The translations under genes and the position numbers were made by a program. This document shows, piece by piece, positions 111 to 144 of a DNA stretch of 2,892 bases. The notes under the pieces were generated by a model. That model ran no database searches. It saw only the letters and a list, made by a program, of their open reading frames with translations, and was not told the origin of the DNA. The first letter of the stretch is position 1. Every line of letters begins with the position of its first letter. The DNA is from Escherichia coli (GTDB taxonomy: Bacteria; Pseudomonadota; Gammaproteobacteria; Enterobacterales; Enterobacteriaceae): NCBI RefSeq assembly GCF_003334765.1, contig NZ_QOWT01000072.1. One strand, written 5' to 3'.

Positions 111-144
111 AACAGCAATTAACTATTGCTATAATAATATCTAT
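111..144. repeat. Left arm of a 34-bp near-perfect inverted repeat (partner 2521-2554)
   Basis: aacagcaattaactattgctataataatatctat versus the reverse complement of 2521-2554, aacagcaatcaactattgctataataatatctat: 33/34 identical. It starts exactly at the junction with the IS2-like end. Weaker, indel-containing homology continues inward to about 310 (left) and about 2236 (right). Confidence 0.9.
114..135 (+). promoter_or_regulatory. Candidate extended -10 promoter (TGCTATAAT, 127-135) abutting palindrome AGCAAT-N5-ATTGCT (114-130), reading into the left cassette
   Basis: TGnTATAAT consensus is seen directly and there is no convincing -35. The 6-bp palindrome arms agcaat/attgct are separated by 5 nt and overlap the TG of the extended -10. 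The same arrangement is conserved in the right arm. Sequence-only prediction. Confidence 0.4.

Follow-up and report, generated by a model that had tools for sequence, protein, structure and literature searches.

The window analysed here, a stretch of 2,892 nucleotides of Escherichia coli (contig NZ_QOWT01000072.1), is a piece of a pAA plasmid of enteroaggregative E. coli (EAEC) and contains a pair of nearly identical 34-bp inverted repeats, the arms, at positions 111-144 (+) and 2521-2554 (-). The arms are very probably the upstream halves of two paralogous predicted promoters that depend on the regulator AggR. The left unit is orf3-orf4, named EC042_pAA003 and EC042_pAA004 in strain 042, and the right unit is composed of a 50-aa open reading frame (ORF) and a truncated orf3 (EC042_pAA005A and EC042_pAA005). 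An earlier reading made from the sequence alone, here the original prediction, had taken the arms as candidate termini of an element that also carry a promoter and an operator.

The window is 99.9-100% identical to EAEC virulence plasmids of the pAA type, including p140_MLI109 and the pAA plasmids of O104:H4 and 042. Among 5426 complete E. coli genomes, 58 have its AT-rich core (111-2554), without exception on a plasmid; of 72,556 plasmid records, 57 contain it, and all 57 belong to Escherichia.

Predicted AggR-dependent promoters of the two units

An AggR-dependent promoter has been defined as a single WWWWWWWTATC site located 21-23 bp 5' of a -10 hexamer (Yasir et al. 2018, PMC6392122; here and below, statements about this paper refer to the portions of it that are cited). 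We applied this definition allowing at most two mismatches in the A/T tract and none in TATC, with an A at position 2 of the -10. Both arms contain, in the correct orientation and with 0 mismatches, the predicted AggR-binding site ATAATAATATC (131-141, +; 2524-2534, -). At 22 bp 3' of it, outside the arm, there is a predicted -10 hexamer, TATCAT on the left (164-169, +) and TAGCAT on the right (2496-2501, -), and variants in the length of the T-run keep the spacing at 21-22 bp.

Both promoters have been tabulated. In Table 1 of PMC6392122 the entries for plasmid pAA2 (strain 042) include CAGCAATTAACTATTGCTATAATAATATC...TATCAT for EC042_pAA003 and CAGCAATCAACTATTGCTATAATAATATC...TAGCAT for EC042_pAA005A, each with a spacing of 22, and these two sequences are the two arms. 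Moreover, the 56 bp published for pAA005A as the distance between site and start codon fits the 50-aa ORF of the window (PMC6392122). RNA-seq of an aggR mutant of 042 gave log2 fold changes of -4.54 for pAA003, -4.13 for pAA004, -5.34 for pAA005 and -5.56 for pAA005A, so that the loss of aggR lowers all four genes 17- to 47-fold (PMC6392122, Table S2). A second study counts pAA003, pAA005 and pAA005A among the AggR-regulated genes whose repression is lifted in an aar mutant. For the 042 homologues, published RNA-seq thus establishes that transcription of both units depends on AggR, and Table 1 together with these data agrees with the earlier proposal that each arm carries the promoter region of its cassette; the binding of AggR at ATAATAATATC, the -10 hexamers and the transcription starts of both arms are predictions. 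As regards other regulators, CRP included, a paper on chromatin immunoprecipitation of CRP in EAEC and a paper on AggR levels do not mention these genes.

Conservation and natural variation of the arms

The left arm (AACAGCAATTAACTATTGCTATAATAATATCTAT) and the reverse complement of the right one (AACAGCAATCAACTATTGCTATAATAATATCTAT) are identical at 33 of 34 positions, the sole mismatch being arm position 10; at a background identity of 0.70-0.78 the probability of at least 33 matches is 8e-5 to 2e-3. With a repeat finder the pair grows inward to 114 nt (111-224 and 2441-2554; 77% identity), and a second inverted block of 80% identity (241-320 and 2239-2318) is reported. In a five-way alignment the identity between left and right copies is 11/12 over arm positions 1-12 and 22/22 over positions 13-34, and beyond the arm it is 20/25 over positions 35-59, 33/53 over positions 60-110 and 71/92 over the first orf3 codons. 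The left copy also lacks, between 222 and 223, 110 nt that are held by the right copy (2442-2333) and by a distant paralog on an IncFII plasmid contig (L036), a segment corresponding to nearly the entire small ORF. The steps from 22/22 to 20/25 and 33/53, together with this gap, show in the alignment what had been reported, namely near-identical arms and an interior diverged with indels.

Two motifs had been described in each arm, and we located both in both: TGCTATAAT, which has the form of an extended -10 element, at 127-135 (+) and 2530-2538 (-), and a dyad, AGCAAT-N5-ATTGCT, at 114-130 and 2535-2551. Natural variants were taken from the left and right copies in nine plasmid stretches found by BLAST and in 24 metagenome contigs, the latter fetched by an exact match to arm positions 13-34 and hence unable to test the invariance of this segment. 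The outer 12 nt occur in five versions (AACAGCAATTAA, AACAGTAATTAA, AACAGCAATCAA, AATAGCAAACAA and AACTGTAATCAA), and the variation falls at arm positions 3-10. Positions 13-34 (CTATTGCTATAATAATATCTAT) are constant at 22/22 in both copies and in all copies seen, and the -10 is TATCAT on the left (TATTAT in one lineage) and TAGCAT on the right. As judged from these variants, the constrained unit is the 22-nt core, not the dyad and not the 34-mer.

More distant relatives of orf3, found by protein search, show 77% identity on the IncFII plasmid contig (L036/L037) and 60-62% in Salmonella enterica (L038-L040). The promoter region of L036 (4760-4850) matches arm positions 13-34 at only 13 of 22 and has no TGnTATAAT, and it keeps TATC, a 22-bp spacer, a -10 of the type TAnnnT (TAAGGT) and 28 nt to the ATG. 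Since the architecture is kept without the sequence, the comparison favours an activator site over an extended -10. The same contig encodes a regulator of the AggR family (10664-11029), 40% identical over the DNA-binding domain; a second AraC-family protein is also encoded there. In the coding region the left copy, the right copy and L036 are roughly equidistant, with identities of 77%, 74% and 69%.

The outer boundaries of the arms

The arms had been regarded as candidate termini (terminal inverted repeats or att-like ends) with a shared boundary against unrelated flanks. The left flank is, as described, the tip of the right inverted repeat (IRR) of an element of the IS2 type (IS, insertion sequence): its outer 33 nt, ending ...GGGCAAATCCA, occupy 78-110 (+), and in O104:H4 pAA it runs leftward into the 3' end of an IS2-type orfB. 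The right flank had been assigned to an IS2-like orfB, and this does not hold: it is a 71-nt remnant of an IS3-family orfA (2555-2625, -; codons ~3-25, ...GKLYPEEFKVEAVKQVVERGDSV), with 85% nucleotide identity to chromosomal copies of an IS3-family orfA and a match to HTH_Tnp_1 (E=0.0018), and an IS2-type 3' end begins on this side only at 2626. No target-site duplication flanks the pair (aatcca and ctaact), in agreement with the earlier observation.

The outward sequence differs among the plasmids. At the left arm, 042-type plasmids have 27 additional bases (AAGGCCGTCTGG.GATAGCGGATCAAG) that separate the arm from the same IS2 tip, JE86-type plasmids have these 27 bases preceded by a different IS2-group end, and plasmids of a third type have an IS66-like element inserted at a distance of 20 bp from the arm. 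The IS2 tip stands directly at the left arm in 53 of the 58 genomes, but not in the other five or in several metagenome contigs. On the right, orfA follows as in the window in 38 genomes, IS5 is found 4 bp out in 16 (mostly O104:H4), IS1 lies in the arm in two, and two are of the JE86 type.

On the outer side of the right arm, JE86-type plasmids and the metagenome contigs that match them have AAAGGCCGTCTGGATATAGCAGGCCAAG, which matches the left 28-mer at 25 of 28 positions. Over nt 1-101 of an intact IS3-family orfA the JE86 right flank aligns colinearly and without a gap, and the 28-mer is therefore IS-derived DNA common to both copies. As the same 5' part of orfA stands, inverted, at both ends, the locus bears the mark of an inverted duplication rather than of an insertion; and because the 28-mer lies outside both arms in ancestral-type plasmids, the junctions of the window at 110/111 and 2554/2555 are secondary deletions. 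The left one, of 27 bp, is next to the IS2 IRR tip and is plausibly an IS2-mediated adjacent deletion. The right one is separate and removed 34 bp, so that the orfA remnant now adjoins the arm; JE86-type plasmids retain the undeleted continuation. The homology that continues outward into the shared orfA thus removes the basis for termini, and the inverted duplication supports the suggestion, also made earlier, that the arms belong to two separate copies rather than to one transposon.

Some details of these junctions may be added. Both deletions (L003 1238-1264; L008/L009) end within 1-3 nt of each other, at a transition from GC-rich to AT-rich DNA about 65 nt 5' of the predicted start. The IS2-type right end of the 042 type (L003 ~1237/1238) and the IS2-group left end of the JE86 type (L009 ~3472/3473) abut the same orfA nucleotide, 27 nt outside the left arm, which could reflect an insertion hotspot or the rearrangement of a single insertion. 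Two plasmids of 57 kb have IS1 within the right arm, behind AACAG (L006 6920-6990), the IS5 copy of O104:H4 pAA is at L002 8450-8460, and IS1 is found within the 28-mer in two metagenome contigs (L027/L031). The insertions in or beside the arm indicate that the outer arm tolerates disruption. The 28-mer was also considered as a terminal repeat of the element that flanks the arm in L004 and L006 and was rejected as such, that element being IS66-like with the tip GTAAGCG... and the 28-mer being colinear with orfA. The arm start agrees with orfA nt 157-168 at 10/11, which was put down to chance.

Alternative explanations

The assignment to AggR has its own weak points. It is bioinformatic, and our literature search gave no footprint, point mutant or mapped start for these two promoters. 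WWWWWWWTATC is degenerate, with six matches in the window against 2.1 expected, and TGCTATAAT, a perfect extended -10 that shares bases with the AggR site, could itself be a promoter. For pAA003, a second candidate AggR site and -10 are given further downstream (PMC6392122). Gene conversion could be the source of the higher left/right identity in the outer segment (28-mer 25/28 versus 77% in the coding part), and two independent deletions would have to end within 1-3 nt of each other. As a separate observation on the second pAA003 candidate (window 161-200), its TATC is 164-167, within the -10 of the first promoter, and it has no counterpart in the right copy.

A rival explanation takes TGCTATAAT as the real extended -10 promoter of each cassette and the dyad as the operator of a dimeric repressor, with AggR acting indirectly or by displacing the repressor or H-NS. 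In its favour, TGnTATAAT is a perfect extended -10, and of its four occurrences in the window (0.39 expected) two fall within the arms; the dyad is likewise perfect in the window, and the lone arm mismatch falls in its spacer. However, the fall in expression without AggR implies that there is no strong constitutive promoter, an AggR consensus that overlaps TATAAT predicts repression rather than activation, and L036 has lost both TG and TATAAT yet keeps TATC-22-TAnnnT. Nor is the symmetry of the dyad kept: its outer half-site AGCAAT has become AGTAAT, AGCAAA or TGTAAT in three of the five arm versions, uncompensated in the inner ATTGCT, which is unchanged, and this argues against a symmetric operator. 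Dyads of the form 6-N(3-8)-6 are, besides, common in the cassette (15 versus 7.9 +/- 3.5 expected), and the -35 position, a poor one, differs from flank to flank. A sigma-70 consensus scan left TGCTATAAT uncalled for want of a -35 and gave 22 hits against 11.7 expected, a result that is uninformative in DNA so AT-rich. We consider this explanation quite unlikely. Of the promoter and repressor site that had been proposed for each arm, the promoter region stands, and L036 and the arm variants speak against TGCTATAAT as the working -10 and against a palindromic operator.

Another rival sees the 34-mers as the true ends of a mobile element with AT-rich cargo, on which a transposase or recombinase would act, and it is extremely unlikely. 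It would be suited by the arm beginning exactly where unrelated IS DNA stops, which is the case for the left arm in 53 of 58 genomes and for the right arm in 38 of 58, as well as by the fading of homology to L036 at the outer arm, which implies an old join between AT-rich DNA and IS orfA within about 11 nt of the arm start. On the other hand, homology extends past the arms by 28 bp in JE86-type plasmids and, at the left arm, by 27 bp in the 042 type, the same inverted orfA part lies on both sides without a target-site duplication, and insertions of IS1, IS5 and IS66 inside or beside the arm are tolerated. The 34-mer, whose recurrence at the ends of other cargo had been proposed as a check, was found by BLASTN only at the pAA locus in 72,556 plasmids and 5,426 E. 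coli genomes, and the 22-nt core, searched in GTDB species representatives and JGI metagenomes, only at pAA loci, apart from two GTDB matches, in metagenome-assembled genomes of Arcobacter and of an archaeon, that lack arm homology and are ascribed to chance. ORF and domain analysis revealed no intact transposase or recombinase between the arms, only a degenerate 3' remnant of the IS256 family. An invertible segment finds no support either, since among about 35 loci no flank-swapped or inverted variant occurs: a left-type flank always accompanies a left-type arm (T at position 10) and interior, and the same is true of the right type. The absence of such recombinants also bears on the idea that the near-identity of the arms is mainly a patch of gene conversion or recombination between old paralogs rather than the outcome of selection. 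This is rather improbable as the main cause, and it is compatible with AggR-dependent promoters and does not exclude them. It draws on the near equidistance of the left copy, the right copy and L036 in the coding part, on the left/right identity of 53/59 over arm positions 1-59, on the shared IS-derived 28-mer, which is absent from L036, and on the differences at one of 34 arm positions in the window and 042 lineages and at four of 34 in the JE86 lineage. The 25/28 of the 28-mer is not significant alone against the 77% expectation, and for this reason the data do not separate constraint from conversion. Within each copy, though, the 22-nt core is constant across lineages and its neighbours vary, which means constraint whatever the history. 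The outer ~60-87 nt are more alike between left and right than the interior; constraint explains the 22-nt core, and a conversion patch may have contributed. Of the two causes that had been offered for the conservation of the arms, constraint can thus be retained for the core, and conversion as a possibility only.

A model for the origin of the two promoters

The AggR-dependent promoters and their boundaries can be accommodated in a single history. An ancestral three-gene cassette, consisting of the small ORF, orf3 and idi and already joined upstream to a fragment of an IS3-family orfA, would have been duplicated together with this fragment in inverted orientation. The left copy would then have lost the small ORF and retained orf3-orf4, and the right copy would have been cut by an IS256-family element that left the small ORF and about 33 orf3 codons. 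The coincident boundaries between arms and IS DNA seen in the window arose later, when the orfA-derived 28-mer was lost through two separate deletions, a left one of 27 bp and a right one of 34 bp.

In the promoters themselves, ATAATAATATC within the arm is the predicted binding site of AggR, an activator of the AraC family, which would bring RNA polymerase to the weak -10 (TATCAT or TAGCAT) located 22 bp downstream. Transcription would start about 30 bp inside the inner edge of the arm and run inward. The inner 22 nt of the arm may be constant because they carry the activator site, and the outer 12 nt would be free to drift.

Genes of the cassettes

The left unit begins with orf3 (241-1269, +), the EC042_pAA003 homologue, which encodes a 342-aa enzyme with the class 1 isoprenoid (trans-prenyl synthase) fold, as indicated by AlphaFold and Foldseek, and is annotated by the Prokaryotic Genome Annotation Pipeline (PGAP) as "class 1 isoprenoid biosynthesis enzyme". 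Orf3 has no sequence (profile) match in Pfam, NCBIfam or PDB. Its AlphaFold model has a predicted local distance difference test (pLDDT) of 71.7 and a predicted template modelling score (pTM) of 0.75, and the top 50 PDB matches of this model in Foldseek are all trans-prenyl diphosphate synthases or the prenyltransferase MoeN5, with template modelling (TM) scores of 0.5-0.56 and E values of at least 3.5e-3. The family keeps the motifs DxxxDE and QDDVxDIxED. The next gene, orf4 (1273-1812, +), homologous to EC042_pAA004, is idi and encodes a type 1 isopentenyl-diphosphate (IPP) isomerase (NUDIX, 8e-20; NF002995 IPP isomerase, 1e-40).

The right unit, on the opposite strand, starts with the 50-aa small ORF (2315-2467, -), the EC042_pAA005A homologue, which has a strong Shine-Dalgarno sequence (AAGGAGGT) and ends ...GPAWSSWS. 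It is followed by the truncated second copy of orf3 (2211-2333, -; EC042_pAA005 homologue), in which about 33 first codons precede unrelated DNA; this copy is 80% identical to 241-320 and agrees with the left copy at 71 of 92 aligned positions. In all relatives outside EAEC an ORF of 50-52 aa ending NPAWSSW(S/A) is followed by an orf3 homologue and then by a Nudix/Idi gene, and the stop of the small ORF abuts or overlaps the start of orf3 in L036 (4848-5000), L037 and L040 (4843-5001). In EAEC the small ORF, a putative precursor, thus belongs to one AggR-dependent unit and the enzyme to another, and the two units converge.

It is possible, although on the less probable side, that the two AggR promoters have been kept because together they co-express the halves of a split peptide-prenylation system similar to ComX/ComQ, with pAA005A on the right as the precursor and Orf3 plus Idi on the left, the prenylated peptide being a possible signal or biofilm factor. 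In Bacillus, ComX is a peptide prenylated on tryptophan by ComQ, an enzyme similar to prenyl synthases. The likeness is one of organisation, as the EAEC-type cassette has a small ORF abutting a gene with the prenyl-synthase fold, conserved tryptophans in the C-terminal tail (NPAWSSWS), and idi attached. The differences are that Orf3 shows fold-level similarity only, with no sequence-level match to the polyprenyl_synt or ComQ models, that no ComP/ComA two-component pair is found near orf3 homologues, and that the host is Gram-negative and the locus plasmid-borne, with precursor and enzyme of EAEC on two convergent units. Our search found no literature that links ComQ/ComX to EAEC.

The orf3 and orf4 genes are widely used EAEC markers and are described by the authors of PMC6392122 and PMC7781526 as involved in biofilm formation (the cited portions of these papers do not give a biochemical function). 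The link between a small Trp-tailed ORF, an enzyme with the prenyl-synthase fold and Idi offers a testable biochemical hypothesis. If it were true, AggR would switch on the production of a prenylated peptide in EAEC. Other E. coli plasmids and Salmonella have related intact cassettes.

Plasmid context and other features of the window

On pAA plasmids the genes neighbouring this locus are the agg/aaf fimbrial operons, aggR, aap and aar. At its left edge the window contains the 3' end of IS3 (1-77, +), ending ...GTAGGATCA and sitting in the IS2-type terminal repeat; the PGAP feature 'IS3-like element IS3 family transposase' stops within it. The insertion of IS3 at 77/78 into the IS2 terminal repeat is found in five of the 58 genomes with the cassette (H1-H5), where it marks a sub-lineage, and the other matches begin at 78 or 82. 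At about 100-102 the window reads GGG, the closest record GGGG.

Between the two copies lies a degenerate 3' remnant of an IS256-family transposase gene (1871-2201, +), annotated by PGAP as a frameshifted pseudogene (1878-2201); the joined translation of two ORFs at 1871-2175 matches PF00872 weakly, at positions 323-363 (E=0.002). To the right of the orfA remnant there is the 3' end, with IRR, of a second IS2-type element (2626-2700, +), which matches the IS2-type end in L002 and contains a 25-mer identical to 78-102. The two IS2-type right ends are in direct orientation, the 25-mer being at 78-102 and 2667-2691. At 2625/2626 the IS2-type end is fused through CCAC microhomology to codon 2-3 of the other IS3-family orfA. 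The second IS2-type end is inserted in an IS629-like orfA, and the window closes with an interrupted IS3-family orfA/frameshift region (2701-2892, -), annotated by PGAP as a transposase pseudogene with a frameshift pseudoknot at 2689-2787 and IS629-like by our own reading.

Comparison with known systems

Features of this kind are already known, and so, in essence, is this one, both sequences being tabulated as predicted AggR-dependent promoters (PMC6392122). With the AggR promoters of aafD, afaB, aggD, agg3D, agg4D, aap, aatP, aaiA and aggR they share the single WWWWWWWTATC site 21-23 bp 5' of the -10, AT-rich DNA with phased T-tracts, and downstream genes that are strongly AggR-dependent; the difference is that the pAA003 and pAA005A promoters were predicted, not dissected (PMC6392122). 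In its cited portions the paper makes no statement of the promoters as inverted paralogs, of the overlap with an extended -10 or of the IS-derived upstream edge.

The AggR sites also resemble those of Rns (PMC6392122), a regulator of the AraC family, and hence the promoters of the Rns/CfaD type of enterotoxigenic E. coli. The distant paralog L036 lies near an AggR-family homologue. The likeness extends to a class II-like activator that overlaps the -35 region.

As in IS-bounded inverted duplications of virulence plasmids, there are two inverted copies split by an IS remnant, whose ends have been eroded by IS2, IS66, IS1 and IS5 and by adjacent deletions. Here, in contrast, the repeats are promoter-bearing 5' ends of genes and not IS copies, and nothing points to the unit moving as a transposon. 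The idea of a mobile element is accordingly not upheld. What this analysis adds to the tabulated promoters is that they are inverted paralogs, that the constrained unit appears to be their 22-nt core, that their sharp junctions are deletion scars, and that their architecture persists in a distant paralog lying near another AggR-family regulator; the view of the cargo that came as a by-product could matter more than the arms themselves.

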